The notes below the pieces were generated by a model. That model saw only the letters and a program-made list of their open reading frames with translations, searched no databases and was not told the DNA's origin. DNA of 24,000 nucleotides, taken from NCBI GenBank assembly GCA_021829145.1, contig JAJZOE010000040.1:8098-32097 (forward strand), given 5' to 3'. Below, piece by piece: positions 2,201 through 23,635 of the stretch. Each line of letters starts with the position of its first letter. The first letter of the stretch is position 1. The position numbers and the translations under genes are program-made. Source of the stretch: a bacterium. Its GTDB lineage: Bacteria > Patescibacteriota > Saccharimonadia > Saccharimonadales > UBA4665.

Positions 2201-3664
2201 CTAGCCAGTAGCTAGCGGCTGATAAACAATATCCAACCCAGAGGTGTCAATACTAAATGCAGAAAGATATCTTTGTAAAGATGAAGCACAGTATTGCTGA
2301 CTTATATTTGATGGATAAGAAACATATAATATCGCACTGTTAAAGTTAACATAATTTACTGAGCATAAACCCTGTAATACATTTGGAAAAATAGCACTGA
2401 AGGAAGAAAATTGAAAGTTTTGAGCTGTTCTATTTAAACCTATACGGTAAAGTTGGTTACCTGATTGACTGGTATTGATTATCGGAGAATTGCTGACGGT
2501 GAAATAAACGAAACTACCTGAATAGTCAGGATATATATTGTCTATATATGATTGTCCGGCAGTTTGAGCTATTTGACCAGAATAGTTATTAGCAATCGAG
2601 TATTTCCAGAGGCTACCACCCGAGGAGTAATAGAGGGTATCTCCATTTCCCCAAGCCATATCGCTTATTGTGCCGTTACTCGTAGAGTTATCTACCAAAG
2701 ACATCGAGCTATTGTAAATATTGATCCCTCCGGTAGAAAGTGATGCTATATACTTTCCATCTGGAGAAACGGCAATATCCTGTGAAAATATATTTGTTTC
2801 TAAGTTCTTAGAACCATTTAGCAGGGTTATATTACCTTGCAAGTCGGGATTATTCTTATCAGGACTCAACAATAAAGCTATTGTTCCTGAATTAGAGGAC
2901 ATCCTAATTATTGAATTATTTGATTGGAAGATTTTATGAAAGTTACCAGATCCACTTCCCATATACAATTCTCCACCATTGCTTATATAGATGTACCCTT
3001 TATTATCTATGAAATAGTTTACAGATGATTTAGGTGTAAGTTTAAACGGAAGCTTAAGATTAGATATGCTGCCATTTTTGAATAGAAATATACCCATTGA
3101 ATTTCTAAGAAGACCTAGCCCAGAAGCATTCCAAGTGGCCGAGCTATATTTTATATTACCCAATACACTAACAATATTGTTTTGATTTATTGTTGTTAAT
3201 AGACCGGAGGAATCGAGGAAGGTTAAGGATGATGATCCGGGGTATAAATAGGATAAACTTGATCCATACACCCCTACCGGAGTAACTGAGAAACTATCCA
3301 AGTAAAGCTTATATGTTTTTTTAGATGATTCATTTATCGTTACAGTCTTAACTAGTCGATTAGAATTATTAAAAACACCCAACTGATACTCTCCATATCT
3401 TACCGAAATAGACAAGAAATGCTTTGCGGAAGTCATTTGGCTGACTAGAGGCAGTCCGTTTTTAACAGGAGTTATGGACACATAATTAGAGGGGTTGCTA
3501 CTTTCAACTATAATTGTAGTGGTGGTAAGTAATGTGTAAACCCATAATAGTATAAAAATAAATACAACAATAAATATTAATAGAAATAAAACCTTTCTTA
3601 TACTCTTAATCCCAAATATCGCTCTACTTATTACCATGATGGCCACCCTGATGGAATTGTGCAT
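2201..3664 (-). CDS. Hypothetical membrane-anchored, N/S-rich protein with beta-propeller-like (TolB/PD40-like) repeats; last gene of the T4SS-like operon
   Basis: 487-aa ORF with one N-terminal TM helix (VLFLLIFIVVFIFILLWVYTLL). Repeated motifs such as SPDGKYIASLSTGGINIYN and GDTLYYSSGGSLWKYS resemble propeller blades. An alternative start at ATG 3637 (MVISR...) overlaps the upstream stop as ATGGTAA, which would fit translational coupling. The domain call is tentative. Confidence 0.7.
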   Translation of the reverse strand: MHNSIRVAIMVISRAIFGIKSIRKVLFLLIFIVVFIFILLWVYTLLTTTTIIVESSNPSNYVSITPVKNGLPLVSQMTSAKHFLSISVRYGEYQLGVFNNSNRLVKTVTINESSKKTYKLYLDSFSVTPVGVYGSSLSYLYPGSSSLTFLDSSGLLTTINQNNIVSVLGNIKYSSATWNASGLGLLRNSMGIFLFKNGSISNLKLPFKLTPKSSVNYFIDNKGYIYISNGGELYMGSGSGNFHKIFQSNNSIIRMSSNSGTIALLLSPDKNNPDLQGNITLLNGSKNLETNIFSQDIAVSPDGKYIASLSTGGINIYNSSMSLVDNSTSNGTISDMAWGNGDTLYYSSGGSLWKYSIANNYSGQIAQTAGQSYIDNIYPDYSGSFVYFTVSNSPIINTSQSGNQLYRIGLNRTAQNFQFSSFSAIFPNVLQGLCSVNYVNFNSAILYVSYPSNISQQYCASSLQRYLSAFSIDTSGLDIVYQPLATG

Positions 3665-8442: not shown

Positions 8443-9168
8443 CTACCTAGCTCGTCTTCTTATTCGCTTACCTCTGCGATCATAGCTTGATGCAACCTTA
8501 GCCAATTCTTCTGTACTCTTTTCGGCTTTTTGCTCCAGTTTACTTATTCGGTTAACTGCTTTTCTGGCTGCTTTTCGTTCTTTTCTAGTACGAGGTATAT
8601 TTGCATTAGTGATAGAGGAACCGTAATCCATACTAATAGCTCTTGCTTCCTGAGATAATTCGTTGCGCTCATCTATAAGATCATTTATTTTTCTAGCAGT
8701 TTTATGCTCTTTTCGCGAAGAAGGCCTTAGTGTATTAGGAACAGTACGAGGTCCGTCGTGAGTTTTTCTCATTAGCCATTCACCCATATGAGTAAAGTCA
8801 CCCTCGTATGTACCTGCCGGTAAGCTGCGGTCAACCACTTCTTCTTTCAAGTATCCTACCCACCCAATCTTTTCTTTCGGATTACCTGTTTGTCTCGGAT
8901 TCACTAACCTGTCGCCAACATATTGAGCAACTTCTATGTGTCTTTGTGCCTCCGCTTGTCTAGCCTCTCTGCCCTTTTCAGTAAATACCCTAAATAGGCC
9001 TTTTACAGCAGCTACAGACTCTGTTACAGCTCCTGGATACCCTTCGAACCCCGGTTCATGGATAATTGTCTCATTCGGGGGCTCGGGAGAACTAATAACG
9101 GGCCCGTTATCTCTTATGTGATTAATTAATTGTTGCAATTGATTTGGATCGTATGGATGGGATTCCAT
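8443..9168 (-). CDS. Hypothetical soluble protein with a highly basic C-terminal half
   Basis: 241-aa ORF with no TM helix or signal peptide. The C-terminus is rich in R/K (RTRKERKAARKAVNRISKLEQKAEKS...RRGKRIRRRAR). It sits within the operon between the VirB6-like and 940-aa genes. Confidence 0.7.
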   Translation of the reverse strand: MESHPYDPNQLQQLINHIRDNGPVISSPEPPNETIIHEPGFEGYPGAVTESVAAVKGLFRVFTEKGREARQAEAQRHIEVAQYVGDRLVNPRQTGNPKEKIGWVGYLKEEVVDRSLPAGTYEGDFTHMGEWLMRKTHDGPRTVPNTLRPSSRKEHKTARKINDLIDERNELSQEARAISMDYGSSITNANIPRTRKERKAARKAVNRISKLEQKAEKSTEELAKVASSYDRRGKRIRRRAR

Positions 9169-9269: not shown

Positions 9270-9983
9270 GTGAAAGTGAGATACAGACGTATGAGCGAGA
9301 AGCAACTATTGGTATATGGGGCCAGGATTAGATTGGCCTGGTTTAGAAAAGCAGAGGAACTTGGGAGTGTTAGTGCTGCCTGTAAGTACTATGGCATACC
9401 TAGGCGAACATACTACTACTGGTACAAACGTTATGTTGACGGCCACAAACTGTTAACTAGCCTATATGACTTACCTAGGATCCCTAAGAGTCATAAACAG
9501 GACTTAAGCGAAGAGTTAGTTAGCCTCATTGTTCAGCTAAGACTAGGGCTCGGCTATGGAGAGAATGCCTTAACTCATGTTCTAGGCAGAGATTATGGCG
9601 TACGCCTATCCCATCATGCGGTTGGTAATGTACTGCGCAGAGCATCTTTAACCGAACCTAAGCCCCGTAAAAGGCGTACACAACGTCAACTTAATGACTA
9701 TCCTTACAAACCAGGTGAAGTAGGACAGATGGATGTTAAGCATTGGAAACGGGTGGCTTACCAGTACGATTTAATTGACTGCGCCACCAGGATTAAGTAC
9801 AAACGTTTGTATCCAGGTTACAGTCCAGCTGAAACCATAGACTTTCTAAAACACGCCATCAGGTTCTTTGACCCAGCTTTTAGCTTTAAGACTATTCAAA
9901 CAGACAATGGCCCAGAGTTTGTTTACGACACCAAGCCACAGATTAAATTAACTACCGTCTCACCAGTTACTAAGTGGCTAGAC
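9270..9983 (+). pseudogene. IS481-like (rve integrase-core) transposase, 5' fragment
   Basis: HTH-like N-terminus, then the DDE core start: GQMDVKHWKRVAYQYDLIDCATR...IQTDNGPEFV. The frame breaks at the nested IS. The 12 codons after 9983 in the ORF track (STYAKSVSSNW) are read from the inserted element. Confidence 0.8.
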
Positions 9984-9998
9984 TCGACTTACGCAAAA
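9984..9998. repeat. Left terminal inverted repeat of the nested IS (TCGACTTACGCAAAA)
   Basis: Exact reverse complement of 11106-11120, checked base by base. Confidence 0.9.
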
Positions 9999-11050
9999 TC
10001 AGTCAGCTCAAACTGGTAGGCAGGATTTCTCCAAAGCTGTTTCTGGTATTCCCGTAAGGGGATATGCTTAACCTCGTACATGGTGGTCTGCATTTGCTTG
10101 GCTAGTTCATTGAATTGATGCCAAACAACAAAAGCAATGCAGATATGGTTCCGCTGTTTTCTACCTTTCCTGGCTTGGCACTTGGCTACGCCAGTTAATT
10201 GTTTAACCTCTCTATGAAACTGTTCGATCTTCCAACGAAAGCCGCCAACCTGTTTGGCAGCCTCTGTGGTCTCGGTACTTACTTGGTTCGTCACCAAGTA
10301 TTCCACCCGGTGTTTAGCCGTGAGCTGGAATAGTTTCAACTTCTTATCTTTAGGCAGAAAATCTACGCAAACAAGCTTGCCATGTTCTTTAAGCTCGGGA
10401 TCTTCCCAGTCCAGATCACCAACATGCTTGTAGATAATCTGCATTTCGCCAGTCGTCTCGTTGGGGTACTCGTAGCTCACTATCCGGCTTTTAGGCATCA
10501 CGCCAAAGAAGTATTTATTGATGCGAATTACGTATTGCATGATCTGCTTGCAGGTGTAACCTGCGTCAATGAGAACTGTGGTAAATGGTGCACGGCTAGG
10601 GTGCAGTTCACCTATGGCTTGCCAGTACCGAATCATCTCTAGGGCATGAGCTGTTTTCTTCTTACCGTCAGTAGCTTTGTCATAAATCCGGTAGTCAAGT
10701 ATCCAGTATTTGTCTAGTTCAGGATTAATGTAGACCAGCGTGACAACACCAATGCCAGTGGTAATGCTATGCTTTTGTCCGGAGTACTGGGCGGAGGCTA
10801 CTTCAATCTGTTCGGACGATGCTTTATCCATGACCGTGTCATCCAGAGCCAAATAGCCGTTCTTACTGGGGATGATGAGCTCCAAGGCTTTTTCCCGTAC
10901 TACCTTGGGCGACAACTTAATGGTAGCGATTGATCTGCCTATGGTGTCATGGGACACTGTCCCGATGACTTCTGAGAAGTAAGTAGCCGTAAAGTTATCT
11001 ACCCCATTAAGTAACATCTGAGCATAGTCAGACGTCACGATTTTTGCCAT
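9989..11050 (-). CDS. DDE transposase, IS4 superfamily (IS701-like)
   Basis: 353-aa ORF. Candidate DDE residues lie in LALDDTVMD, VLIDAGYT and FRWKIEQFHREVKQLTG (R-x3-E-x6-K signature of IS4-type enzymes). An AAGGAGA SD lies 5 nt upstream of the ATG. The 3' end of the ORF runs into the terminal repeat. Confidence 0.85.
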   Translation of the reverse strand: MAKIVTSDYAQMLLNGVDNFTATYFSEVIGTVSHDTIGRSIATIKLSPKVVREKALELIIPSKNGYLALDDTVMDKASSEQIEVASAQYSGQKHSITTGIGVVTLVYINPELDKYWILDYRIYDKATDGKKKTAHALEMIRYWQAIGELHPSRAPFTTVLIDAGYTCKQIMQYVIRINKYFFGVMPKSRIVSYEYPNETTGEMQIIYKHVGDLDWEDPELKEHGKLVCVDFLPKDKKLKLFQLTAKHRVEYLVTNQVSTETTEAAKQVGGFRWKIEQFHREVKQLTGVAKCQARKGRKQRNHICIAFVVWHQFNELAKQMQTTMYEVKHIPLREYQKQLWRNPAYQFELTDFA

Positions 11051-11121: not shown

Positions 11122-11456
11122 TAGAGAGCCATAGTATTGAGCATGGTTGCATACCGGTTCGTTCACCACATCTTAACGGTAGAATTGAACGATCTCATGG
11201 TGTAGATAAAGACCGTTACAAACGTCTAACGACAAACAGCCACGACAAAAGTGAATTGCAAGCCTTCCTCATTGATGACTGCCTAGACTACAACTTCTAC
11301 CGACCGCACAGTATGCTGAACATGATGACACCAATTGAGTACTTACAAAGTCTGCCTGGCTACGAGAACGCTAATATTGATACAAGTTGCTACTTGTTTA
11401 GGAGGGCGACCAGCAGCAAATTAACCAAGATCTATCATTTCTACACCAAGAGATGA
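11122..11456 (+). pseudogene. IS481-like transposase, 3' fragment
   Basis: Same frame as 9270-9983. It translates to ...HSIEHGCIPVRSPHLNGRIERSHGVDKDRY...FYRPHSMLNMMTPIEYLQ, which holds the catalytic E region and the rve C-terminal motif. The frame has no stop before the putative IS end and terminates at TGA 11454-11456, inside the convergent neighbouring gene. Confidence 0.75.
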
Positions 11457-14400
11457 GTAGTCAACCAAGTAGTATCCGCGATCATCAGTATAAACTGCCT
11501 CTGGATGTATAGCTATAATATCCTGAGCCATTACACCGATATAGCATTTCTCTTTTCCAATGTATTTAAAGGTGTACATGGGAACGTTATCATCTGTTGT
11601 ATAGAGGTACCTAACCTCTTGTTTTAACCTAATATCTGAAGGTGCTGGAGGACCTGGAGGGCCAATAGGAGGTCCTGCAGGCCCCGGAGGACCTGGTGGT
11701 GGCATATTTGCAGCGGCAGCTTCTTGATTGGTAGTCAATACTTTTTTATATTGTTGGAATTCTCTATCTGACTCAACGGCTGAAAGAACCTCGCCAAGAG
11801 TTCCTGCTCTTCTGGATACTTCAGCCCTTTCCATTACAGGCATATTGGTAGAAGTGTCTATGGCCGGGTTTCCGTCTTTATCCATTACCTGCCTCATACC
11901 ATACACTGGTACGGAAGTAACTGAAGTCAACGGAAGATTTTGTCCCATGACCGCTCCTACAATTGCGTTGTTTTCTGGACTTAACTGCGACGCTATGTCA
12001 AGAAACGAGGATGTATGTGCAAGTGTACGTTTAAGTTGACGTTCTGCATTTGCTATAGCTACCTGATTACCTGATTGTCTTGCTGTTTGAACATCTGCAA
12101 CTGCTCTTCCGAGCCTACGCTGCATTGCAGGTACCATAATTTGAAGAGAGTTATTTCTAGCACTACCAATTTCGCCTGCACTCTTGGTGTCCATAACCTC
12201 ATCGGTCATAATCTCGTTAACTGCAGCATCGTTCGTATTACCCGTATAGAGTTGAGACAATTGATCCATAGACGTGGCAACCCCAGCCCCGTATAGATCC
12301 ACACGCCTAGCTTGCTGCGCCTGCTGCCTGGCACTAATTAACATCCTGGCTGCTCTAGCCCTGTCTCTTCCAGCAACACGGTTGATTGTACGTAACATTT
12401 CTGCTGGACCTCCTCTATAACCAGTTCCTGTTCCTGCTAAGTTAGCAGCTGCAAAATCCTCAAACGCCTCAACTCCAACTTCTTTTCTGGCTCTAATAAT
12501 TGACGAAACATTTTGATCAAGCTCGGCACCAGTTTGCCCGATTCCCTCTAAGTAAGAGCGTATATCTTCTTCGGTTCTGTTACGGTATAAGGCTGCTCTA
12601 AGCAGATCATCATTACCTTTAATCATACTCACTGCAGCGCTTTTTTCTGCTTCTGATGAATGCACGCTTGTCATTTCAGATCTAACAGAATCTAGGTTGC
12701 CTCTAATTCTGGCAGGATTAAGTCCTGCTTTCCCCGATGCAATTAGGGAAGCGCTTTGGAGCCTTTGATTTAGCCTGTGTCTTAGGCTAGAAGGGTCCGC
12801 ATTCTTAAAGTGTTTACCTGCTAGAGTGTTATTGAAATTCTTTGCGGCTTGTTTTCTGGCCATACCCATCAGGGGTTTATTTACTCTAGATGTCATCTTG
12901 GATACAGCTCCGGATACACTCCCTATCACGCCACCTGACATTCTAAAAGCAAACGGTATTAGGAATAACGGGGCAACAACTGCAATAAGCGCCATACATT
13001 GGGCAAGAATTGTTGGTTTAATGGTCTGATCAAAATCACTCATAACCACACCGCTCACGTATGCCATTGCAAATACAGAAGTAACTATTGGGTATACGGT
13101 CAAAGTCTTGATTAGTAGTCCCCACCATTTCTTAAAATATTGTTCCGTATTAGGCAGAACATAAAGAGCAAAAGCTACAGGTGAAATTAAAAGAAGAAAA
13201 ACTAATAGCCCCTGTCGGACTATAACAGTTATAAATATGCCTAGAACTGCTACAAGTGCCATTATTACAACCAATAATAAGATGCCAATACTGCCTGCCG
13301 TAAGTACGCCAAAGGCTAAAGCACCAAGACCTAGAGATAAAGCACCTACGCCTAAAAGGCCGGTTCCTCCACCTATATTCATTCCTGGTAAGACGCTCTT
13401 ACTCCCACCCATAATCGACCCAGCCGCTGCTCTGAAAGGAGCCTCAATAATTGAGCTTATACCAGCACCAAGTATGTTGAAGATATCTTCAAGCCCGGCG
13501 ACGATGTAAATTGATAAATTAATTAAGATGGCCGCTACAAGGATCCGGGGCAATACTTTTCTAACGGTGTAAGCTTCAATCATGCCACCACCTGCAGCCT
13601 CCCCATATACGATTGCCAACATCGCAATCACCAGGATAATATCGCCATATAACCGGAAGTTTGACCAAACATGATACAATGCAGAACTAAAATTCGCTTC
13701 AGAGCTACAGGAGGACCCAGGCTTGTTAGAACAGCTCAGGCTGCTTGTAAAACTAATTGGCTTAGTTTGAAGCAGGTCTTGAACATATTTTTCAATACTC
13801 TGTTCGGCGCCGGTTACCGCATTTATAACAGGACATATAACCCAAGCTAGAGAGAAACCACTAGACTCACATTGTGACGGTCCACTAGAAGGCGTTTGCG
13901 CAGGGGTAGATGTTGACGATGCATTCGCTGGTACGAAACGTTGATTTTTTACTAAAATAATGGAAATTGGCTGTGACATACTTGCATTTAAATTTTTAAG
14001 CTTTTCTGACGACTCAACTTGATAATAAGGAGGATTGCCCAATGGTGATGGCGAATAGTTGATGACTACATCATATTTATTTGGCGTAACATTGTGTGCC
14101 TGAAACACGCCATCATTTACGGCCGTTAATGATTTATCACCATTTGAACAACTGGATGAATTTTTAGACGCTAATATTAAACAAAGCCCAACATATGTAC
14201 CATTTTTGGGAGCTTTCGTTGTATTACAGCTTGAATTGCAGGTACTATTTTGGGTATATCCAACATCGAAGGTAACCGTAGGAATAACCTTTGTTTTAGT
14301 AGTGGATAGTGTAATACTAGACGTTTTATATACTCCTAGCCACTGACTCACCTTGCCACACAGATTAATGAACGCAATAGCAGAAGAAGATCCTTTAGTG

Positions 14401-14807
14401 ACTTCTAAATTGACATTTGTGTTATTGTTTGCGTTTTGGCAGGCTTGTATGTTTTGGGTGGTGGCAACATTTTTAAAGTATGGGGAGAGAAAACAGTTAT
14501 TTGATGTATCGTAATTATAACTAGAATAAACTCCGCCATTTATTGAAAACTTATATCCCGTAGAGTTGGATTTATTACTTACACCGTTAATAGGAAAACA
14601 CAATTGTATTGAATCGGCTGCCCCAATTGTGTTTATTGGGGTTGAGCCGTCTATTATTGTTAGTTGCTGTGTATTATTTGAGGTAGATGAAGCGTGTGCT
14701 ATTTTAGAAGTCTTTATAACTAAAGACATAAAGACAGCAAAGAAAAGAATAAACAGAAGCCCAATTATTTTTATTTTTCTCATGTTAAATTTCTTATATC
14801 TTGTCAT
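11421..14807 (-). CDS. TrbL/VirB6-like polytopic membrane protein with a Cys-rich N-terminal ectodomain, a long helical C-terminal region, a collagen-like tract and a C-terminal Peptidase_S74 intramolecular-chaperone domain
   Basis: 1128-aa ORF. Signal/anchor is IIGLLFILFFAVFMSLVI. Residues about 35-380 are N/S/T-rich with 12 Cys. Residues about 385-635 hold about 7-8 TM helices, including the VirB6/TrbL-like RQGLLVFLLLISPVAFALYVLPNTEQYFKKWWGLLIK. The C-terminal features are listed separately. The alternative start is ATG 14783. Confidence 0.85.
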   Translation of the reverse strand: MTRYKKFNMRKIKIIGLLFILFFAVFMSLVIKTSKIAHASSTSNNTQQLTIIDGSTPINTIGAADSIQLCFPINGVSNKSNSTGYKFSINGGVYSSYNYDTSNNCFLSPYFKNVATTQNIQACQNANNNTNVNLEVTKGSSSAIAFINLCGKVSQWLGVYKTSSITLSTTKTKVIPTVTFDVGYTQNSTCNSSCNTTKAPKNGTYVGLCLILASKNSSSCSNGDKSLTAVNDGVFQAHNVTPNKYDVVINYSPSPLGNPPYYQVESSEKLKNLNASMSQPISIILVKNQRFVPANASSTSTPAQTPSSGPSQCESSGFSLAWVICPVINAVTGAEQSIEKYVQDLLQTKPISFTSSLSCSNKPGSSCSSEANFSSALYHVWSNFRLYGDIILVIAMLAIVYGEAAGGGMIEAYTVRKVLPRILVAAILINLSIYIVAGLEDIFNILGAGISSIIEAPFRAAAGSIMGGSKSVLPGMNIGGGTGLLGVGALSLGLGALAFGVLTAGSIGILLLVVIMALVAVLGIFITVIVRQGLLVFLLLISPVAFALYVLPNTEQYFKKWWGLLIKTLTVYPIVTSVFAMAYVSGVVMSDFDQTIKPTILAQCMALIAVVAPLFLIPFAFRMSGGVIGSVSGAVSKMTSRVNKPLMGMARKQAAKNFNNTLAGKHFKNADPSSLRHRLNQRLQSASLIASGKAGLNPARIRGNLDSVRSEMTSVHSSEAEKSAAVSMIKGNDDLLRAALYRNRTEEDIRSYLEGIGQTGAELDQNVSSIIRARKEVGVEAFEDFAAANLAGTGTGYRGGPAEMLRTINRVAGRDRARAARMLISARQQAQQARRVDLYGAGVATSMDQLSQLYTGNTNDAAVNEIMTDEVMDTKSAGEIGSARNNSLQIMVPAMQRRLGRAVADVQTARQSGNQVAIANAERQLKRTLAHTSSFLDIASQLSPENNAIVGAVMGQNLPLTSVTSVPVYGMRQVMDKDGNPAIDTSTNMPVMERAEVSRRAGTLGEVLSAVESDREFQQYKKVLTTNQEAAAANMPPPGPPGPAGPPIGPPGPPAPSDIRLKQEVRYLYTTDDNVPMYTFKYIGKEKCYIGVMAQDIIAIHPEAVYTDDRGYYLVDYSSLGVEMIDLG
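11424..11639 (-). other. Peptidase_S74-like intramolecular chaperone / autoproteolysis domain (C-terminal 72 aa of the VirB6-like protein)
   Basis: SDIRLKQEVRYLYTTDDNVPMYTFKYIGKEKCYIGVMAQDIIAIHPEAVYTDDRGYYLVDYSSLGVEMIDLG. It matches the family hallmarks S-D-x-R-x-K (Ser/Lys dyad with a 5-residue offset), hIGhhAQ-h...P-hV and h-V-D-Y-s-x-L. Confidence 0.75.
11640..11705 (-). repeat. Collagen-like Gly-Pro-rich tract (PPPGPPGPAGPPIGPPGPPAP) immediately before the S74 cleavage serine
   Basis: The plus strand reads ggtgctggaggacctggagggccaataggaggtcctgcaggccccggaggacctggtggtgg. The protein shows G-P-P/G-P-A triplets with one interruption. Confidence 0.85.
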
Positions 14808-14859
14808 TTTAACTAATAAATACTACAAAATTCATTCACTTTTTCCATTTTCATCTAGA

Positions 14860-14888
14860 ATTATAAACAAAAGCATTAAAAAAATCAG
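14860..14888 (-). promoter_or_regulatory. Weak candidate internal promoter upstream of the VirB6-like gene (-35 CTGATT, 17 nt, -10 TATAAT)
   Basis: Located in the 102-nt AT-rich gap between the VirB4 stop and the VirB6-like start. The -10 is perfect and the -35 is poor. Motif evidence only. Confidence 0.25.
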
Positions 14889-14909
14889 TTATTTGGCTAA
14901 ACCACTGCA

Positions 14910-16841
14910 TTACACGCCTGGACTTAGGTGGTTTGTTAAATCAATCGTTCCGCCAATAGGAGTGTTACTATTTTGTAGATTTACACTAGCATTCCTATTC
15001 TCTATCTGATTAACCTCTTGAGGATTTGTGGTAATTAGGGATGTTTCTGTTGGACTGGCAATTACTTGAATATGAACATGGTTTTGCCCGGCGAAGAATA
15101 GACCTTGGCCAACTGGAAACTGACTTAATCTTTTTTTCTCTTCGGTGGTTAACTTAAATACATCACTTAGCATGTCTACTGCAGATGGAGATTGCTTTAA
15201 TAGGAACTGCATGGAAGCGTTGGCAACAATTGCTCTTCCCATGCGGCTACCCATAAAATCTTCGACATCTTGGGTGACCGTTGTTATCCCCAAGTTATAC
15301 TTCCGGGCTCTCTTAGCCACGCTAAACAAGAAGTTGGCCGAATCCTCGTACTTCATCAGCTGCCAGGCTTCATCTACTATTAGAATCCTTCTCTTCTTAT
15401 CTGTTTTTGTACGATTCCAGATATAGTTTAAAACTATATACATAGCTACCGGTCTAAGCTCGTCTTCAAGATCTCTTACGTTAAACACGACCATCTGGTT
15501 ATTTATATCGATGTTAGACTGTTGGCTAAATATCCCGGCAAAGGTTCCGCTGGTATATTTTCTCAAACGTTGGGCTAGTTGTGGCCCAAAACCACCCATA
15601 TGCAGCAAAGTGTCATAAAGATCATTTATTGTCGGCGGCTTACTGCTATGAGTAAGCGGATCATTGGTAATCCCCGCTCTGGCATAAGTGTCTATAAGCG
15701 CCGCGTCAAGATCTGCTTCTTCTGAAGGTGTTAGTGCTGGCATTAAGGTGGCGTTGCCACCAACCAGCTGAGCCTGAGCCCCACCCATCATTAGTCTTAA
15801 AAGCCCATGCAGGGTAATAAGGTTAGACCTTAAGGCGTTGTCGGCTTCTTCTTCATCAACCACTCTAGGCAAATCAAACGGGTTAACGCGCGTTGAACTG
15901 CTAAGACTTAACCTTACATAAGCTCCGCCTACCGCATCACAGAGCCTTTGGTATTCGTTTTCCGGGTCAATAATAATTATCTCGGTACCGAACATCATCG
16001 ATCTCAGGGCTTCAAGTTTTACGGTAAATGACTTACCGGCTCCAGACTTAGCGAATACAACCGAGTTACCGTTTTCCAGACTGAAGCGGTCAAAGATGAC
16101 CAGGCCGGAGTTATGCATATTTATCCCGTAGAGAATGCCATTATCCTGGCTAAGATCGGCAGAGGTAAAAGGAAAACTGGTACTCAGAGCGCCGGTACTC
16201 ATGTTACGGCGAATTTGCAATTGATCGGAAAGTTGAGGAACGGTAGAGTTTAAACCCTGTTCTTGTTGGGCTGTAGCCGGTTTACTATAGACCAGTTGTT
16301 CGCCAAGCATAGACTCTACTTTGTGTGTTACGAAATCTAACTCGTCTTTTGATTCAGCATAAATAGTGAAGTAAAAACCAAAACGGAAGAATCTTTCCTC
16401 TCCTACCTGCAGTTTATCTCTAATTTCTTCGGCATCTTGGATGGCGGCTTGTTTGCCCGGGTCTCGGACTTTGCCCTTCTCCATGTCTATCTGAATACCA
16501 GCCTCTAACTGGGTGACCTTTTTTCGCAGGTTTTCTAATACAACCTGACTTTCAACTGGATAGATATAGAGGCTAATATCCATAACCTCGTCCAAGTTAA
16601 CCATGCCGCTCAGCCAGCCGGTATATAGTTGCCTCGGATAGCCGTAGACATAAAAAGTGCGGGCAAACCTGGTTCCTATCTGGAAGAAAGAACTGTTAAA
16701 CTCGATTGAACTTGGGGCAATAAAATCTCTAAGGGCAGCAACGCCTTTTTGAAAGGCTTCTTGTACTTCTCTTTTTTCCTGCTCTCTTTGGTTTTGGGCA
16801 AGGGTAATAGGATCCACCGATTGTTTCTTACCAAAGGCCAT
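14910..16841 (-). CDS. virB4: VirB4/TrbE/PrgJ-family T4SS ATPase (C-terminal two-thirds of a typical VirB4)
   Basis: Walker A AKSGAGKS is encoded at 16029-16052 (verified codon by codon). Walker B is RRILIVDEAWQLM. The N-terminal IAPSSIEFNSSFFQIGTRFARTFYVYGYPRQLYTGWLSGM block is typical of Gram-positive VirB4. The start is taken as ATG 16841. The ORF track's TTG at 16850 would overlap the upstream stop. Confidence 0.93.
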   Translation of the reverse strand: MAFGKKQSVDPITLAQNQREQEKREVQEAFQKGVAALRDFIAPSSIEFNSSFFQIGTRFARTFYVYGYPRQLYTGWLSGMVNLDEVMDISLYIYPVESQVVLENLRKKVTQLEAGIQIDMEKGKVRDPGKQAAIQDAEEIRDKLQVGEERFFRFGFYFTIYAESKDELDFVTHKVESMLGEQLVYSKPATAQQEQGLNSTVPQLSDQLQIRRNMSTGALSTSFPFTSADLSQDNGILYGINMHNSGLVIFDRFSLENGNSVVFAKSGAGKSFTVKLEALRSMMFGTEIIIIDPENEYQRLCDAVGGAYVRLSLSSSTRVNPFDLPRVVDEEEADNALRSNLITLHGLLRLMMGGAQAQLVGGNATLMPALTPSEEADLDAALIDTYARAGITNDPLTHSSKPPTINDLYDTLLHMGGFGPQLAQRLRKYTSGTFAGIFSQQSNIDINNQMVVFNVRDLEDELRPVAMYIVLNYIWNRTKTDKKRRILIVDEAWQLMKYEDSANFLFSVAKRARKYNLGITTVTQDVEDFMGSRMGRAIVANASMQFLLKQSPSAVDMLSDVFKLTTEEKKRLSQFPVGQGLFFAGQNHVHIQVIASPTETSLITTNPQEVNQIENRNASVNLQNSNTPIGGTIDLTNHLSPGV

Positions 16842-16842
16842 A

Positions 16843-17694
16843 CTAACCAAGCTCCCTTTGCAAATGCGGCTGTGCCGCTACGCCTTGTCCTTTGGTTATT
16901 ACGTCGGCTGTCAGGTCATTTATATCTTGAAGTTGCTGGCGGGTGGCAGTGTCCGGGTTATAGGTATCATAGTAAAGCTCAATCAGTTCCTGGGTGTCTA
17001 GAGGAAGGCCTTGAATATTGGCCTGCATAAGGCCTCCTAACACGGCCTGGACCCGGTTCCTTAACTCAGTTTTAGCCGCCTCCAACTTAGCTTCATTAAT
17101 TACAATATGAGGCTCTTTCTTATTAAAAAGGTCGACTACTCCTGTAAGAAAGTTTTTGCTCTGGGCCATAGTCTTTACTTCGTCTACGACCGGGAAGTAT
17201 GGGATAACTACATAAAACTTTTTATCCATGATATTGGTTTGCTGACTTAACAGCTCCATGTAGTTGATATAGTCATCCATCAGCATGGCGAGCAGCATGT
17301 TATCGTGCTCCGAGCGGATCTTATCTAGTTTTTCTAGATACGGCTGCATGTCTATCCGCTGAGTGCGAATACAGATTTGAATCGGAAAATCTAAAGAATT
17401 AAGAAATCCTTGATAGGCGTATTCGACGCTCTCTTGTTCCTGCGGGCTCATTAAATCAAAGTTAATACTCTTAACCATAATTACGCTGCGGAAACTACCG
17501 TCGTTCATAATGACGATACCATCTCTTATTTCGGCAATTTGTAGCGTATTTTGAGTACTGTTAGGATTTATTATTTTCGTTGGCTTAGTTGAAGTGTCAT
17601 GAACTATAGGTCCTTGAGGCGGCTGAGTTATAATCGGACTTGGGATCTGGCCGGGTATTTGTGTTGGTTGTTGGTTATTGAGCGGTGGATTCAT
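16843..17694 (-). CDS. VirB4 N-terminal-domain-like protein (separate ORF) with a Pro/Gln-rich N-terminus
   Basis: 283-aa ORF with no TM helix. IAEIRDGIVIMNDGSFRSVIMVKSINFDLMSPQEQESVEYAYQGFLNSLDFPIQI resembles, from memory, the extreme N-terminal block of Firmicute conjugative VirB4 proteins. Its stop TAG (16845-16843) is separated by 1 nt from the VirB4 ATG. Confidence 0.7.
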   Translation of the reverse strand: MNPPLNNQQPTQIPGQIPSPIITQPPQGPIVHDTSTKPTKIINPNSTQNTLQIAEIRDGIVIMNDGSFRSVIMVKSINFDLMSPQEQESVEYAYQGFLNSLDFPIQICIRTQRIDMQPYLEKLDKIRSEHDNMLLAMLMDDYINYMELLSQQTNIMDKKFYVVIPYFPVVDEVKTMAQSKNFLTGVVDLFNKKEPHIVINEAKLEAAKTELRNRVQAVLGGLMQANIQGLPLDTQELIELYYDTYNPDTATRQQLQDINDLTADVITKGQGVAAQPHLQRELG

Positions 17695-17704
17695 TGGTTT
17701 GCAA

Positions 17705-18784
17705 TTAATGTAAATTAATAACTACTTCGTCGTCCGGCATTGATTTCTGCGCCTCGTGGTCAAGTGTGGCAACGCTCAAGTAGCTGTTATTGGCAAGATT
17801 CAGTATAACAGGGTCGATTGGATTTGGCTTCGGGTTTTGGGCAGTCTGTGGTGCCTGAACTTGAGGAGTGTAAGCTGTTTGTTCCTCTATTTGCCTGTCG
17901 GCTGGTCGAGTCTGCTCCGGTGCCGGATAAGCAGGTATTATTAAGTCTGCCTGAACCACGCTATCTTGAGAAGTTGCCTGAGCTGTAGACTGAGGCGAAT
18001 TACTTTGTGACGAGTGGATGGCCATGTGAGTAATCGGTACTTGCGGCACTTCAAAAGTATTCCTGGCCCTAAGTTCGGCACTTAGGATGCCCTCGTCGGT
18101 AATATCCAATATAGGGTTGCTATCCGGATGGCTTACTCTGCCATTAAGTGAATCAATTATTCTTTGACGGTGAGCTTGGGCAGACAGGTTTATACGGTTA
18201 TCCATCGACTGAGCTAACGGGTTATGCTGTTCATCTAAAATGTCATCCTCCGGAGTAACGTCATAATCGGGTACGGGTTTTGGTATCGAACCGATATCTA
18301 TTAACCGGTCGTTGCTGGCCGGGCGGATTACTCTGCTATCGTCAGGAACCGAAGGCATGTTTTTAATAGCCCAACCACGACTGTCAATCATAAGTGTTAA
18401 TGCTTGCAAACGGTTGTTGACCTCTGCTTGTGACAGCCCGTTGGTTAAAGGTCTTTCAGTTTTCTTAGGTACGGTAATAGTAACTAGTTCCTTTACGCCG
18501 CTCTGGTTCCATAACCTCTTTCTCGGCTTGAATAAAAACCTTAGCCGGGCCAGGGCCCAAACTTCAGTTGGTTGATCCCTACGGAAAGGAAAGGCAAAAA
18601 ACCCGCTTAGCAGGCCCGGTGGCAACAAGATAATCAACATAAATAGAGCATGCTTTGATAAAGCAAGAAAACACAGGTACAGGAAGAATATAGTAGACAG
18701 GCTATATATAAACTGTCTGAGTGTCAGAGGACCGAGAATATGGTCTTCCGCTTCAATATCCTGAATCACTTTATACGTTGCCAT
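17705..18784 (-). CDS. PrgI/VirB3-like T4SS membrane protein with a long Pro/Gln-rich C-terminal extension
   Basis: 359-aa ORF. N-terminus MATYKVIQDIEAEDHILGPLTLRQFIY is followed by two TM helices (SLSTIFFLYLCFLAL; LFMLIILLPPGLLSGFFAF), which is the PrgI-family pattern. It is the first gene of the minus-strand operon. Confidence 0.8.
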   Translation of the reverse strand: MATYKVIQDIEAEDHILGPLTLRQFIYSLSTIFFLYLCFLALSKHALFMLIILLPPGLLSGFFAFPFRRDQPTEVWALARLRFLFKPRKRLWNQSGVKELVTITVPKKTERPLTNGLSQAEVNNRLQALTLMIDSRGWAIKNMPSVPDDSRVIRPASNDRLIDIGSIPKPVPDYDVTPEDDILDEQHNPLAQSMDNRINLSAQAHRQRIIDSLNGRVSHPDSNPILDITDEGILSAELRARNTFEVPQVPITHMAIHSSQSNSPQSTAQATSQDSVVQADLIIPAYPAPEQTRPADRQIEEQTAYTPQVQAPQTAQNPKPNPIDPVILNLANNSYLSVATLDHEAQKSMPDDEVVINLH

Positions 18785-18792
18785 TTTATCTT

Positions 18793-18822
18793 AGTATAAC
18801 ACCTTAAAAAGCATTAGCTGAA
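18793..18822 (-). promoter_or_regulatory. Candidate operon promoter with an extended -10 (TGTTATACT) and weak -35 TTCAGC
   Basis: On the minus strand, TATACT is 18798-18793, preceded by TGT. Only 8 nt separate the -10 from ATG 18784, implying a leaderless or near-leaderless mRNA. Motif evidence only. Confidence 0.4.
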
Positions 18823-18901
18823 TGTCTGTCATATGTAATAAAATCTATAGTTTGCCTGGGTATAGCTATTGAAGAGATATCTACCCGTATGCCCGTATAC
18901 C

Positions 18902-18930
18902 TTGAAGGAGTTAGTGTTTCATATTATAGT
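18902..18930 (+). promoter_or_regulatory. Candidate promoter of the pilin array (-35 TTGAAG, 17 nt, -10 TATAGT)
   Basis: TTGAAG at 18902-18907 and TATAGT at 18925-18930, followed by TAAGG SD (18936-18940) and ATG 18949. This supports the internal start for pilin 1. Confidence 0.4.
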
Positions 18931-18948
18931 AGTTCTAAGGTTCAGCAG

Positions 18949-19431
18949 ATGATAAAAAGCAAAAAGCATACCAGGAGAACGCTAACGGTAATTTTTACGG
19001 TTCTAGCTTTACTATTTCCATTAACTGCAACCGTCAGCGCTGTTTCTGTTAACCCCGCTTCAGCTCCCTTGTCGCAGTTTGCTTTATCGCAGTGTGGCAG
19101 TAAAAGCGAAGCGGTCCCAACCAGTATTAACTTCGGTTGTACTGGGGCTCAGTGTATCAGCAACCCCAATAGCGCATACTGCCAAACCCCTCACAGTGGA
19201 ATAGTCGACCTAACTTTTGCAATTATTCGTTTTTTGACTGACGGCGTAGGCCTGGTTTTGATAGCTTCCCTGGTTATAGCAGGTATTCAATATACAACCT
19301 CAAGAGGCGAACCCCAAGCTATGAGTAGTGCTTCAAAGAGAATCCAGAGCACTCTTACAGCACTATTTGTTTATTTGTTTATTTATGCAATTCTAAATTA
19401 TGTAGTTCCCAGTAAACTATTCGGACAATAA
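18949..19431 (+). CDS. VirB2/TrbC-like T4SS pilin paralog 1
   Basis: Signal peptide MIKSKKHTRRTLTVIFTVLALLFPLTATVSA, a 4-Cys variable region, then a two-TM core IAGIQYTTSRGEPQAMSSASKRIQSTLTALFV. The track ORF begins at 18889, but ATG 18949 has an SD and yields a canonical signal peptide. Confidence 0.8.
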   Translation: MIKSKKHTRRTLTVIFTVLALLFPLTATVSAVSVNPASAPLSQFALSQCGSKSEAVPTSINFGCTGAQCISNPNSAYCQTPHSGIVDLTFAIIRFLTDGVGLVLIASLVIAGIQYTTSRGEPQAMSSASKRIQSTLTALFVYLFIYAILNYVVPSKLFGQ

Positions 19432-19433
19432 AG

Positions 19434-19823
19434 ATGATAACCAGACTTTTTCAACAATTTGCCTCATCTTGCACTCCCAGCGGAGGCAGCTTTTTTGGAA
19501 TACCCAAATGGTATGCCTATCTACCAGGCCGGTCAGATCCAGTTACCGGAGTATGCACGCCTAACTTTACTAGTATTGGTGACTTTTGGCTGATTGTAGC
19601 TGCAGTAATCGAAATGCTGCTCAGGCTTGGGGCAATTGTTGCAGTTTTCATGGTTATTTACGGTGGTGTTACTTTCGCAACTAGTCAGGGCAACCCGGAA
19701 GATACCAAGAAGGCCAGAAGTACCATAATCTATGCTCTAGTGGGCTTGCTGGTATCTATCACGGCCTCGTTTATTATTACCTTTGTTGCTAAGAGTGTGA
19801 TGACAAGGAGCGTAACGGCTTAA
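19434..19823 (+). CDS. VirB2/TrbC-like T4SS pilin paralog 2 (no obvious signal peptide)
   Basis: 129 aa. Cys pair (SSCTPS...GVCTPN), then core IYGGVTFATSQGNPEDTKKARSTIIYALVGLLV. The start is 2 nt after the stop of paralog 1. Confidence 0.8.
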   Translation: MITRLFQQFASSCTPSGGSFFGIPKWYAYLPGRSDPVTGVCTPNFTSIGDFWLIVAAVIEMLLRLGAIVAVFMVIYGGVTFATSQGNPEDTKKARSTIIYALVGLLVSITASFIITFVAKSVMTRSVTA

Positions 19824-19827
19824 GCTT

Positions 19828-20166
19828 ATGTTAAACCTATTGCACGTTATCGCCAGCACCTGTACGGGAAGCCAATACAGCCTTCATGTTGATGGTAGGG
19901 GTACCTGTTACAACACTGGAATACCGACCGTTCAATCCGGCAGTCATGAACTTCAATTTATTTTGCAATTATTCTTTGCCATACTGGCGGCTATCTCGGT
20001 ATTGTTTGTAGTCATCGGAGGTATGCGATATACCATTTCCGGGGGCGACCCGGAAGATATGTCTAAGGCCAAGAACACGATTATCTACGCCCTGGTAGGT
20101 TTAGTTGTTGCCTTATTTGCTGAAGCAATCGTTAGCTTTGCCTTAGGGTATATACAAGGTCTATAG
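19828..20166 (+). CDS. VirB2/TrbC-like T4SS pilin paralog 3 (no obvious signal peptide)
   Basis: 112 aa. Cys pair (STCTGS...GTCYNT), then core IGGMRYTISGGDPEDMSKAKNTIIYALVGLVV. Confidence 0.8.
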   Translation: MLNLLHVIASTCTGSQYSLHVDGRGTCYNTGIPTVQSGSHELQFILQLFFAILAAISVLFVVIGGMRYTISGGDPEDMSKAKNTIIYALVGLVVALFAEAIVSFALGYIQGL

Positions 20167-20168
20167 AA

Positions 20169-20573
20169 GTGAGGAAGCTAATATACTCAATTATTACCGG
20201 CATTATTATTTCCCTGTCGGCCTTTCTGCCGGTATCTGCAGCCAGTAGCAGCAGTGGAGCTATATCCAGTAGTAATTTCATTCCTGTCTGTAGTGGCATA
20301 GCTAAACCTACCATACCCTGCCAGGACTCAAACGCCCAGTCAGGGAATACCATTATTAAGATCATTAAAGATGTTATAGATATTATTTCCTTTATCGTCG
20401 GCGTTGCTGCCGTATTTATAATTATCGTCAGTGGTATGAAAATGGTGGTAGCTAGCGGAGATTCAAAAGCTCTATCAGAAGCAAAGACCGGCATAGTTGG
20501 AGCTATTATAGGAATATTAGTAGTTGTTCTGGCTCAAGGATTCGTAGTATTTGTATTAGATAGGATAAAATAA
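20169..20573 (+). CDS. VirB2/TrbC-like T4SS pilin paralog 4
   Basis: 134 aa with a GTG start. Signal peptide ...IIISLSAFLPVSAAS, Cys pair (PVCSG...IPCQD), core VSGMKMVVASGDSKALSEAKTGIVGAIIGILV. Confidence 0.8.
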   Translation: MRKLIYSIITGIIISLSAFLPVSAASSSSGAISSSNFIPVCSGIAKPTIPCQDSNAQSGNTIIKIIKDVIDIISFIVGVAAVFIIIVSGMKMVVASGDSKALSEAKTGIVGAIIGILVVVLAQGFVVFVLDRIK

Positions 20574-20574
20574 A

Positions 20575-21048
20575 ATGAAGTTATTAATGAACAGAACCAT
20601 TCGTATCATTGCAATAATCGTTTTTGGGATCAGTCCTTTCATTATTAGCCAATCGGTATCTGCCCAGTCGGCTGCCTATTCCAGTGCTTGTCAGGGGATA
20701 AGTGAGTTAGGTGCTGGTCAAGGCTGTAGCAGTGGTCCTTCCACCTTTGATAATCTAATCAAGACCGCAGTTGATATCTTAAGTTATATAGTGGGAATTG
20801 CTGCCGTCATTATGATTATTGTGAGCGGATTAAGGTTCGTGATGGCTGGTGGTGAAAGCCAGGCAGTTTCTGGAGCTAAAAACTCGCTTATCTGGGCTAT
20901 TGTTGGTATTGCTGTGGTTGCGCTTGCCCAAGTTATCGTCCACATGACCCTAAACACGTCAGTTAATATTGCAAAAAACAGTCCTACTTCATCATCTCAA
21001 CAGGCTAAGCAACCGACTAAAACTACTAACCAACCGACGCCACACTAG
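20575..21048 (+). CDS. VirB2/TrbC-like T4SS pilin paralog 5 (polar S/T/Q/P tail)
   Basis: 157 aa. Signal peptide ...IFGISPFIISQSVSAQS, Cys pair (SACQG...QGCSS), core VSGLRFVMAGGESQAVSGAKNSLIWAIVGIAV. It shares LNTSVNI with paralog 6. Confidence 0.82.
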   Translation: MKLLMNRTIRIIAIIVFGISPFIISQSVSAQSAAYSSACQGISELGAGQGCSSGPSTFDNLIKTAVDILSYIVGIAAVIMIIVSGLRFVMAGGESQAVSGAKNSLIWAIVGIAVVALAQVIVHMTLNTSVNIAKNSPTSSSQQAKQPTKTTNQPTPH

Positions 21049-21058
21049 TGTTACTTTA

Positions 21059-21086
21059 TTGATTTTCTTCTTATCAGTGCTATTAT
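21059..21086 (+). promoter_or_regulatory. Candidate internal promoter for pilin paralog 6 (-35 TTGATT, 16 nt, -10 TATTAT)
   Basis: Lies in the only sizeable gap (74 nt) of the pilin array and is followed by AGGAAAGG SD and ATG 21123. Motif evidence only. Confidence 0.35.
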
Positions 21087-21122
21087 ATTTCTGATATAAG
21101 CCAAGGAAAGGTAAAAAATAGA

Positions 21123-21623
21123 ATGATTCAAAAATTTAAAAAACAATTAATGATTGCTGTAGCGGCACTGTCATTGCTGGTACCGGTAGCCGTACCAGCG
21201 GTAGCTTTTGCCAATTCGCCACCCGGCTCAACAGGCTGTACGAGCAATAATATCGCTAGTCAGGTGGGTAATGGTATAGCATCAGCCACAAACCAAACAA
21301 CCAATTCCTGTGGTACTGGCTCTGACATTACAAACGGTGTTAAGAAGATTGCAATAAATGTAGTTGATATCCTGTCGGTTGTTGTAGGTATTGTTGCTGT
21401 TATTATGATCATCTACGCAGGACTAAGATATGTAACCTCTGGGGGCGAGAGTGGCGGTGTTACTAGCGCAAAAAACAGCTTGCTTTATGCGATCGTAGGA
21501 TTAGTATTAGTAGCTCTAGCTCAGTTTATAGTCAGATGGGTGCTCAACACTTCAGTTAATATTGGTACAACAAGCCCACAAGTAGTCAATTTTATTAACC
21601 TTATTCACTTAATAAGGTGGTAA
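21123..21623 (+). CDS. VirB2/TrbC-like T4SS pilin paralog 6
   Basis: 166 aa. Signal peptide ...LLVPVAVPAVAFANS, Cys pair (TGCTSN...NSCGTG), core YAGLRYVTSGGESGGVTSAKNSLLYAIVGLVL. It is the paralog most similar to paralog 5. Confidence 0.82.
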   Translation: MIQKFKKQLMIAVAALSLLVPVAVPAVAFANSPPGSTGCTSNNIASQVGNGIASATNQTTNSCGTGSDITNGVKKIAINVVDILSVVVGIVAVIMIIYAGLRYVTSGGESGGVTSAKNSLLYAIVGLVLVALAQFIVRWVLNTSVNIGTTSPQVVNFINLIHLIRW

Positions 21624-21654
21624 GGTTTTAGGCTTAAGCTAATTTTCTTGGCAT

Positions 21655-21690
21655 AAAAATACTCCCTCAATTGAGGGAGTATTATTTTTG
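21655..21690. terminator. Bidirectional rho-independent terminator between the convergent pilin-6 and hsp20 genes
   Basis: Perfect palindrome AATACTCCCTCAATTGAGGGAGTATT (21658-21683, 11-bp stem including GC-rich CTCCCTC/GAGGGAG). An A-run precedes it and TTTTT (21685-21689) follows it. Confidence 0.75.
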
Positions 21691-21701
21691 GTTTTACTTT
21701 A

Positions 21702-22199
21702 TTAAAGGACTTGGATCTTTTTAACAGTATCCTGCTTTACCTTGCCGAAGCTTATGGTAAGTACACCGTCCTTTAATACTGCTTCAATTTCTTCTTCCTT
21801 GACTGGGACTGGAAGAGCAATGGTCCTTGAGAATTCACCCCAATAGCATTCCTGCAGGAAGTAATTCTCAACATCATCTTCTGTGCCGGCGTTCAGAGTA
21901 CCGCGGATTGTCAGCTGATTGTCAGAAATACTGACATCAAGCTCGTTCTTGTTCACGCCAGCAGTTCTGGCCTTTACAACAAGCTTCTCCTTAGTTTCAT
22001 AAACATCCACCGCCAGCTGACCGGGGACAGCTTCATCTTCGTCCCATTGGTCGTCAGCTGGATTTGCCATTTGCTGTTGTTGTTCTTGAGGAATTTGTTC
22101 TGCTACGGCTGTAGTTGCATCTTCGTCACCCAAAAAAGCTGCAGTTAACTCATCCTCTTCTTCTAATAATAAATCATCGTCACGATTACGTCGTGCCAT
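21702..22199 (-). CDS. hsp20: Small heat-shock protein, Hsp20/alpha-crystallin family
   Basis: 165 aa with an acidic N-terminus. The alpha-crystallin core is LAVDVYETKEKLVVKARTAGVNKNELDVSISDNQLTIRG...GEFSRTIALPVPVKEEEIEAVLKDGVLTISFGK. A GGAGGG SD lies 10 nt upstream. Confidence 0.92.
   Translation of the reverse strand: MARRNRDDDLLLEEEDELTAAFLGDEDATTAVAEQIPQEQQQQMANPADDQWDEDEAVPGQLAVDVYETKEKLVVKARTAGVNKNELDVSISDNQLTIRGTLNAGTEDDVENYFLQECYWGEFSRTIALPVPVKEEEIEAVLKDGVLTISFGKVKQDTVKKIQVL

Positions 22200-22729: not shown

Positions 22730-23635
<906 letters not shown>

Follow-up and report, generated by a model that had tools for sequence, protein, structure and literature searches.

Fixed orthologous groups in a six-gene array of VirB2-like pilins at the type IV secretion locus of an environmental Saccharibacteria member

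Why does a single type IV secretion system (T4SS) locus carry six different pilin-like genes in a row, and are their products partners in one structure or alternatives to one another? The question is raised by six small open reading frames (ORFs), here called P1 to P6, at positions 18949–21623 of a 24,000-nt stretch of contig JAJZOE010000040.1 (assembly GCA_021829145.1); the whole stretch is referred to as the window. An earlier note on the window had described these genes as tandem VirB2-like paralogues and had offered two interpretations, a heteromeric pilus and a repertoire of exposed disulfide loops. We found that the array is already known and that the window holds another copy of a published system, not a new kind of system; the novelty implied by the note falls away, as the array and both interpretations are in the literature. 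The published orthologue of the six genes is the Saccharibacteria VirB2-like array SEML1_0014-0019, and this identification is much more secure than anything we propose about co-assembly. As to function, we favor with moderate confidence a reading in which the six proteins act as non-redundant subunits of a single surface-exposed structure assembled by the T4SS, with disulfide-stapled N-terminal segments facing the host and P6 as the abundant member. Within this reading we infer the topology, the disulfide, the co-assembly and the role of P6 as major subunit, while the comparisons below show the family membership, the setting of the locus, the fixed orthology, the conservation of the Cys pair, the layout with two promoters and the faster change of the N-terminal segments.

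Arrays of this kind were described in TM7x as four to six small VirB2-like proteins, all said to have signal peptides (McLean 2018; 10.1101/258137). SEML1_0014-0019 of Southlakia epibionticum ML1 are six PF18895 pilins with an 83-nt gap before the last, followed by a convergent Hsp20 gene, and all six were scored essential by transposon insertion sequencing (Tn-seq) (Wang 2023; PMC10633639). A survey of 441 VirB2 arrays of 2–11 genes near virB4 reported a within-array identity of ~25% on average and 54% at most, and, drawing on Bartonella and Anaplasma as parallels, suggested adaptation to host strains (Quiñonero-Coronel 2025; PMC12102498). In TM7x transcriptome papers the same six genes are labeled ‘putative effector genes’ and are differentially expressed between infection stages. 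Our assignment of the window array to SEML1_0014-0019 follows from matching synteny, namely six PF18895 genes, a gap of ~80 nt before the last of them and a convergent Hsp20 gene. The additions to the published picture are the fixed orthogroups, a family-wide Cys pair, the absence of signal peptides in P2 and P3, a promoter for P6, and conversion tracts among P4–P6.

An ORF check of the window confirmed six intact genes on the + strand (Table 1), with spacers of 2, 4, 2, 1 and 74 nt from P1 to P6. The tight 1–4 nt spacing noted earlier was present as described, with the 74-nt spacer preceding P6, and each of the six core peptides quoted in the note was found verbatim. P1 could also be read from position 18889 as a 180-aa ORF, in whose numbering its Cys residues are 69/84/89/98. 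We rejected this start in favor of 18949 because a promoter-like site falls inside the longer ORF; AAGG stands ahead of 18949 and the orthologues begin at that point. Antisense ORFs at 20132–20494, 20784–20957 and 21260–21412 (all −) were set aside as shadows of the hydrophobic coding strand.

Alignment of the six proteins gave an N-terminal part that could not be aligned (the N-segment), followed by a helix, a polar loop with the consensus SGG[DE][PS]xxxxxAK, and a second helix. The shared two-helix core proposed in the note was recovered in all six, as were the unrelated Cys-bearing N-segments and the four Cys of P1. P5 and P6, named as the closest pair, had the highest core identity at 62%, with 15–49% for the remaining pairs, and N-segment identity between paralogues was 12–28%, which is effectively unalignable. 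The Pfam family T4SS_pilin (PF18895; gathering cutoff 26.6 bits) was passed by five of the six proteins (P2, 32.9 bits; P3, 56.0; P4, 33.5; P5, 47.6; P6, 47.2), with E-values of 4e-15 to 7e-8. P1 scored 72 bits against a hidden Markov model (HMM) of the family built in this analysis and is a divergent relative of the PF18895 members. The TrbC/VirB2 model (PF04956; gathering cutoff 27.9 bits) gave 25.1 bits for P6 (E = 2.1e-5), 21.1 for P5 and 15.3 for P3, and matched 46 of 55 P6-family relatives at E ≤ 1e-3 (best E = 2.2e-8). These matches indicate remote homology rather than strict TrbC/VirB2 membership. Membership of a T4SS pilin family, as the note had claimed, is therefore borne out by PF18895 for five of the six, together with the sub-threshold PF04956 scores, the matches among P6 relatives, and the placement in a T4SS locus. 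NCBIfam returned only sub-threshold matches, to the ‘Mbov_0395 pilin-like conjugal transfer protein’ family of Mycoplasma integrative and conjugative elements (ICEs; E = 2e-7 to 4e-4). An identity as type IV pilus pilins was rejected, since no such family was among the Pfam and NCBIfam results and the sequences carry Sec-type signals or none, with no class III prepilin signal of the G/FxxxE type. AxA-type cleavage motifs were readable in P1, P4, P5 and P6 as VSA, VSA, VSA and AFA.

A search with the window's VirB4 found more than 500 related loci, of which the best 80 were almost all from Saccharimonadales/Saccharibacteria metagenome-assembled genomes (MAGs) at 81–87% identity, and the window was assigned on this basis to the T4SS locus of environmental Saccharibacteria. 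The HMM, built from the six cores, was searched against all ORFs of the window and these 80 loci (numbered with the prefix L) and recovered 269 pilin ORFs. In 33 loci besides the window the pilin genes again numbered exactly six and had the 5+1 layout; given this and the PF18895 E-values, the six-gene array is not a chance arrangement. For each of the six genes, the best match in any other genome fell at the same position in 34/34 cases, so the genes represent six old orthogroups in fixed order, not a churning family. The pilins evolve fast, with about 41–52% identity to the window compared to 81–87% for VirB4. Orthologues shared 42–67% pairwise identity in the cores and 21–35% in the N-segments, the highest core identity being that of P6 (0.67), and N-segments differed widely in length, the ectodomain of P1 ranging from 61 to 229 aa with 2–10 Cys. 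A signal-peptide-like hydrophobic N-terminus was found in the P1, P4, P5 and P6 orthologues of 33–34 of the 34 genomes. For P2 and P3 an N-terminal hydrophobic segment was found in only 9/34 and 1/34 orthologues, so that two of the six proteins are normally made without a signal peptide.

Cysteine occurs only upstream of the core in all six window pilins; P1 has four such residues and P2–P6 have two each. Across the family it makes up 4.3% of the 50 aa preceding the core, but only 0.09% of core plus tail and 0.69% of background ORFs. In 188 of the 269 pilins the number of Cys in this stretch is exactly two, and C63 of P6 does not vary among 55 relatives; half of the P3 orthologues are without Cys. 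The natural reading of the pair is a conserved extracytoplasmic disulfide, which would hold together the segment in front of the first helix.

We compared the evolution of the variable N-segments with that of the cores. Among species representatives dN/dS failed because synonymous sites were saturated (median dS ~2), and only comparisons of the proportion of non-synonymous differences (pN) were usable. In the closest pair of loci (L034/L045), the proportion of synonymous differences (pS) was 0.5–0.83 and core pN was 0.007–0.04, with N-segment pN from 0.000 in P6 (100% identical) to 0.31 in P1, the latter with indels. In another pair (L012/L029) the most diverged N-segments were those of P5 and P6. 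Overall, N-segments changed 2–18 times faster than cores at non-synonymous sites, with indels, and in none of the species pairs compared did N-segment pN exceed pS. The cores are under purifying selection and all six genes are intact, and the N-segments are clearly less constrained, changing in a lineage- and paralogue-specific manner. Within populations, the comparison was of two assemblies, a very small sample: a locus from a second metagenome sample (L082) differed from window positions 14632–22046 (7.4 kb) at four sites, all synonymous and all in VirB4 codons 479–559, and its array was identical. The identical P6 protein was found on five contigs, the window's own included. The Cys-bounded segments and the cores are thus not equally variable, and the hypervariable segment of the earlier note stands in so far as orthologue identity is 21–35% in the former and 42–67% in the latter. 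Diversifying selection on it does not stand, with pN never above pS and the two samples identical. Evasion of recognition by loop variation, also suggested in the note, runs counter to those identical samples and to the complete conservation of the P6 N-segment in the closest pair. Gene turnover, decayed copies and within-population loop variation, the marks of an antigenic or phase-variable repertoire, were not found; orthology was fixed, all copies were intact and the two samples were the same.

The note had also pointed to a nearly identical DNA stretch in P5 and P6, AACAC[G/T]TCAGTTAATATTG. This proved to be the window's trace of a wider conversion pattern. Exact matches of 17–76 nt between P4 and P5 or between P5 and P6 occur inside single genomes in at least 13 genomes, among them 76 nt (L021), 61 nt (L043) and 41 nt (L041), with others in L058 and L012 and at 20953–20971 and 21546–21564 of the window, compared to a longest background match of 9–11 nt. 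Matches at gene junctions were excluded as artefacts of overlapping ORF calls. All tracts lie within helix 2 and the proximal C-tail. They indicate that short-tract gene conversion links P4, P5 and P6. Such conversion homogenizes the assembly helix and not the variable loops, which fits subunits that pack into a common lattice and is the opposite of the pattern expected from a cassette-based variation system.

Promoter scans divided the array into two units. Besides the promoter-like site ahead of P1–P5 in the window, a TATAGT-type −10 box stands only 7–8 nt ahead of the P1 ATG in eight relatives (L001, L022, L026, L056, L057, L060, L071 and L079), which suggests that the P1–P5 transcript may be leaderless or short-leadered in many relatives. 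In 32 of 34 arrays the P5–P6 spacer carries TTGnnn-13–16 nt-T[AG]nTAT[AT]A and, after it, a strong Shine-Dalgarno sequence of the GAAAGG type; in random stretches the promoter and Shine-Dalgarno motifs occurred at 1.2% and 2.4%, respectively. We therefore predict that P1–P5 form one tightly packed operon and P6 a separately promoted transcription unit. With its own conserved promoter and the most conserved core, P6 would be the best candidate for the major subunit.

Structure prediction gave a two-helix hairpin for the core. An AlphaFold2 model of full-length P6, made with 55 relatives, had a mean predicted local distance difference test (pLDDT) score of 71.5 and showed two long helices behind a signal-peptide helix and a low-confidence N-segment; the P6 core alone was modeled as a hairpin with helices at 3–42 and 47–86 of 87 residues (pLDDT 84).

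These observations can be joined in one model. P1–P5 would be produced from a single, probably translationally coupled operon, and P6 from its own conserved promoter. Each protein would form a two-helix membrane hairpin whose N-terminus faces outward, P1, P4, P5 and P6 being exported through a cleavable Sec signal peptide and P2 and P3 translocating a short N-tail, and the exposed N-segment would be stapled by a disulfide. The subunits may then be pulled from the membrane by the VirB4/VirB3/VirB6 machine of the neighboring genes and built into one pilus-like or conduit structure, on which epibiotic growth on a host bacterium would depend. P6 would likely be the major subunit and P1–P5 accessory or minor ones, not interchangeable variants. 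The heteromeric option of the earlier note agrees with this model, fitting both the six fixed orthogroups and the Tn-seq essentiality of all six S. epibionticum orthologues.

Several points weigh against this reading. P1 falls below the PF18895 cutoff (21.4 bits, E = 2.6e-4), and no window protein attains the PF04956 gathering score. Foldseek searches of the PDB with the full-length and core P6 models returned only generic helical hairpins at E > 1, although the two-helix fold is too simple for Foldseek to discriminate. An hhalign comparison of the P6-family alignment with four Agrobacterium-type VirB2/TrbC proteins from plasmids gave a probability of 0.3%. A profile search of PDB sequences with the P6 family likewise recovered no pilin, the sole match being cytochrome bd subunit II (E = 7.8), and by these searches the family resembled neither characterized VirB2 of the Agrobacterium type nor solved conjugative pilin structures. 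Since the structure and sequence searches were uninformative, the link to TrbC/VirB2 comes from the Pfam model. No pilus has been reported on these organisms, and assembly and co-assembly are what we infer from the genes. The essentiality of the upstream genes in Tn-seq could reflect polar effects on the downstream ones. The argument for the disulfide is the conservation of the Cys pair, and that for P6 as major subunit is its promoter and its conservation.

Three other explanations have to be set against a single multi-subunit structure. The six proteins might be channel parts and form no pilus, staying in or near the membrane as subunits of a monoderm T4SS translocon, as with the pilin-like proteins of Mycoplasma ICEs. 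Gram-positive-type T4SSs are generally without pili, none has been reported here, the sub-threshold similarity to the Mbov_0395 family points the same way, and the remaining locus, with PrgI, TraC-like/TrsD and a large cell-wall hydrolase, is of monoderm type. Homology to the TrbC/VirB2 pilin family speaks for a pilin instead; a structure displayed at the surface would more easily account for the conserved Cys pair and the variable exposed N-segments, and the separate strong promoter of one subunit points to a polymer in which that subunit predominates. We consider channel parts unlikely. The label of Sec-secreted effectors delivered to the host bacterium draws on the signal peptides of four of the six proteins and on the TM7x expression differences, but two long hydrophobic helices and a match to pilin HMMs are common to every member, P2 and P3 have no signal peptide, and soluble effectors would not keep a membrane hairpin as their sole conserved part, which makes this explanation very improbable.

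The remaining alternative is a repertoire of interchangeable pilins whose exposed disulfide loops have diversified for host strains or evasion, as proposed for the VirB2 paralogues of Bartonella and Anaplasma. It would account for N-segments that differ wholly between paralogues and outpace the cores several-fold, for a fastest paralogue that depends on lineage (P1 in L034/L045, P5 and P6 in L012/L029), and for short conversion tracts among P4, P5 and P6, and the published survey (PMC12102498) suggested host-strain adaptation. Yet across 34 genomes none of the six orthogroups has been gained, lost or shuffled, all six genes are intact, co-oriented and tightly packed, and all were scored essential in S. 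epibionticum. The arrays were identical in two population samples while VirB4 had four synonymous single-nucleotide differences, pN was below pS everywhere, and the conversion tracts fall in the helix 2 region instead of the variable loops. We therefore regard a variant repertoire as quite unlikely. A more specific form of the single-structure reading is an obligately heteromeric, disulfide-stapled pilus of six fixed VirB2-like subunits, in which P6, transcribed separately, would serve as the major subunit, P2 and P3 would insert without a signal peptide, and the assembly helix of P4–P6 would stay compatible through conversion while the N-segments diverge to fit the host surface. This version is possible but doubtful.

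The window is the origin-proximal chromosomal T4SS locus of an environmental Saccharibacteria member; dnaN and recF open it at 52–2195, and the array lies among the T4SS genes listed in Table 1. The convergence of the Hsp20 gene on the array is common to the window and S. epibionticum ML1, where the Hsp20 gene (SEML1_0020) was also scored essential, and the adjacency has been kept over a large evolutionary distance. At its C-terminus, the VirB6-like protein carries a collagen-like PPGPPGPAGPPIGPPGPP run followed by a Peptidase_S74 intramolecular-chaperone domain as in phage tail spikes, and this end is shared by only one of ~55 homologous ORFs in related loci (L017). The − strand T4SS cluster contains two overlapping transposase ORFs at 9270–11050, with the VirB6-like gene on one side and the 241-aa ORF downstream, one of 249 aa (+) with HTH_23 and a truncated rve integrase core, the other of 353 aa (−) with DDE_Tnp_1. 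These transposases may cut off the distal genes (the 241-, 940-, 636- and 487-aa ORFs) from the operon promoter. Neither the 940-aa (5541–8363, −) nor the 241-aa (8443–9168, −) protein of the cluster had a Pfam match, and the former combines hydrophobic segments with a long acidic/Ser-rich region at its N-terminus. Beyond the Hsp20 gene, ORF fragments at 22730–23363 (−) match AAA_14 and DUF4143, two halves of one ATPase family, and appear to be a disrupted ATPase gene.

Table 1 Features of the pilin array and its T4SS locus, in window coordinates.
Feature	Position	Strand	Description and basis
P1	18949-19431	+	160 aa; predicted signal peptide (…TATVSA), 4-Cys ectodomain, two-helix core; most divergent member
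P2	19434-19823	+	129 aa; without signal peptide, Cys pair 13/41, two-helix core
P3	19828-20166	+	112 aa; without signal peptide, Cys pair 12/27, two-helix core
P4	20169-20573	+	134 aa; GTG start, predicted signal peptide (…PVSA), Cys pair 41/51, two-helix core
P5	20575-21048	+	157 aa; predicted signal peptide (…SVSA), Cys pair 39/51, two-helix core, Ser/Thr/Gln/Pro-rich C-tail
P6	21123-21623	+	166 aa; predicted signal peptide (…AFA), Cys pair 39/63, most conserved core
Promoter-like site, P1-P5 operon	18902-18930	+	TTGAAG-17 nt-TATAGT; consensus scan
Predicted separate P6 promoter	21059-21086	+	TTGATT-16 nt-TG-n-TATTAT; scan with TG extension; P5-P6 spacer 21049-21122
P6 Shine-Dalgarno	21103-21111	+	AAGGAAAGG; consensus scan
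Predicted intrinsic terminator hairpin	21658-21693	+	11-bp stem then T-run; closes the array, common to the convergent Hsp20 gene
PrgI/VirB3-like T4SS gene	17705-18784	-	PF12666, 44.2 bits; divergent from the array
TraC-like (TrsD-type) T4SS protein	16843-17694	-	PF26593 in the existing contig annotation
VirB4-type ATPase	14910-16850	-	PF19044 TraG P-loop, 99.9 bits, plus AAA_10
Large polytopic VirB6-like protein	11421-14807	-	1128 aa; orthologous SEML1_0013 annotated TrbL/VirB6-like; C-terminal Peptidase_S74 (PF13884, 25.9 bits)
Large cell-wall hydrolase	3631-5541	-	Functional analogue of VirB1; PF18013 Phage_lysozyme2, 73.5 bits; weak M23 and GDSL matches
Hsp20 gene	21702-22199	-	Convergent on the array

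The T4SS to which this array belongs is the only one so far reported to be essential for the growth of its bearer and the only monoderm T4SS with VirB2-like pilins, and its function is an active question. The fixed orthogroups, the Cys pair, the lack of signal peptides in P2 and P3, the P6 promoter and the conversion in helix 2 favor a single multi-subunit structure over a variant repertoire. They leave the category of the system unchanged and single out P6 and the Cys pairs as first experimental targets. Should the obligately heteromeric pilus prove real, it would be without precedent both as a multi-subunit conjugative-type pilus and in a monoderm.

Compared with its closest known counterpart, SEML1_0014-0019, the window array is likewise six tandem PF18895 genes (103–185 aa in ML1) on the strand opposite to the T4SS core genes, near the replication origin, in the same 5+1 layout with a spacer of 74 nt in the window and 83 nt in ML1 and a convergent Hsp20 gene downstream. 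It differs in its upstream-side neighbor, which is PrgI in the window and the VirB6-like gene in ML1, in the transposase genes inserted into its T4SS cluster, and in belonging to an environmental Saccharimonadales genome whose closest reference VirB4 is 87% identical. Essentiality is known only from Tn-seq in S. epibionticum ML1. The window array also resembles the VirB2 arrays of Patescibacteria (PMC12102498) in being tandem and divergent, with core identities of 15–62%. Published array sizes vary (PMC12102498; 10.1101/258137), whereas the Saccharimonadales relatives studied here keep six fixed orthogroups, and two of the six are without the signal peptides ascribed to all members in TM7x (10.1101/258137).

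Further afield, the TrbC/VirB2 pilins (PF04956) of Gram-negative T4SSs are likewise small, have a signal peptide and a two-helix hydrophobic hairpin with a short polar loop, and are encoded beside VirB3/VirB4; the array differs from them in having six paralogues instead of one, a monoderm host and the Cys-pair N-segment. As cited in the survey (PMC12102498), the VirB2 families of Bartonella and Anaplasma also place several tandem divergent genes in one T4SS locus, but those families are read there as antigenic or host-range variation, whereas here the set is orthologous and fixed, with no variation between two samples. Type IV pili and type II secretion pseudopili offer an analogy only: they are built from one abundant subunit plus several low-abundance ones, major and minor paralogues with a common hydrophobic core and divergent exposed parts, often with a disulfide loop. 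Their fold and machinery are unrelated, the VirB2-like subunits having a two-helix hairpin in place of a single N-terminal helix with a globular head.

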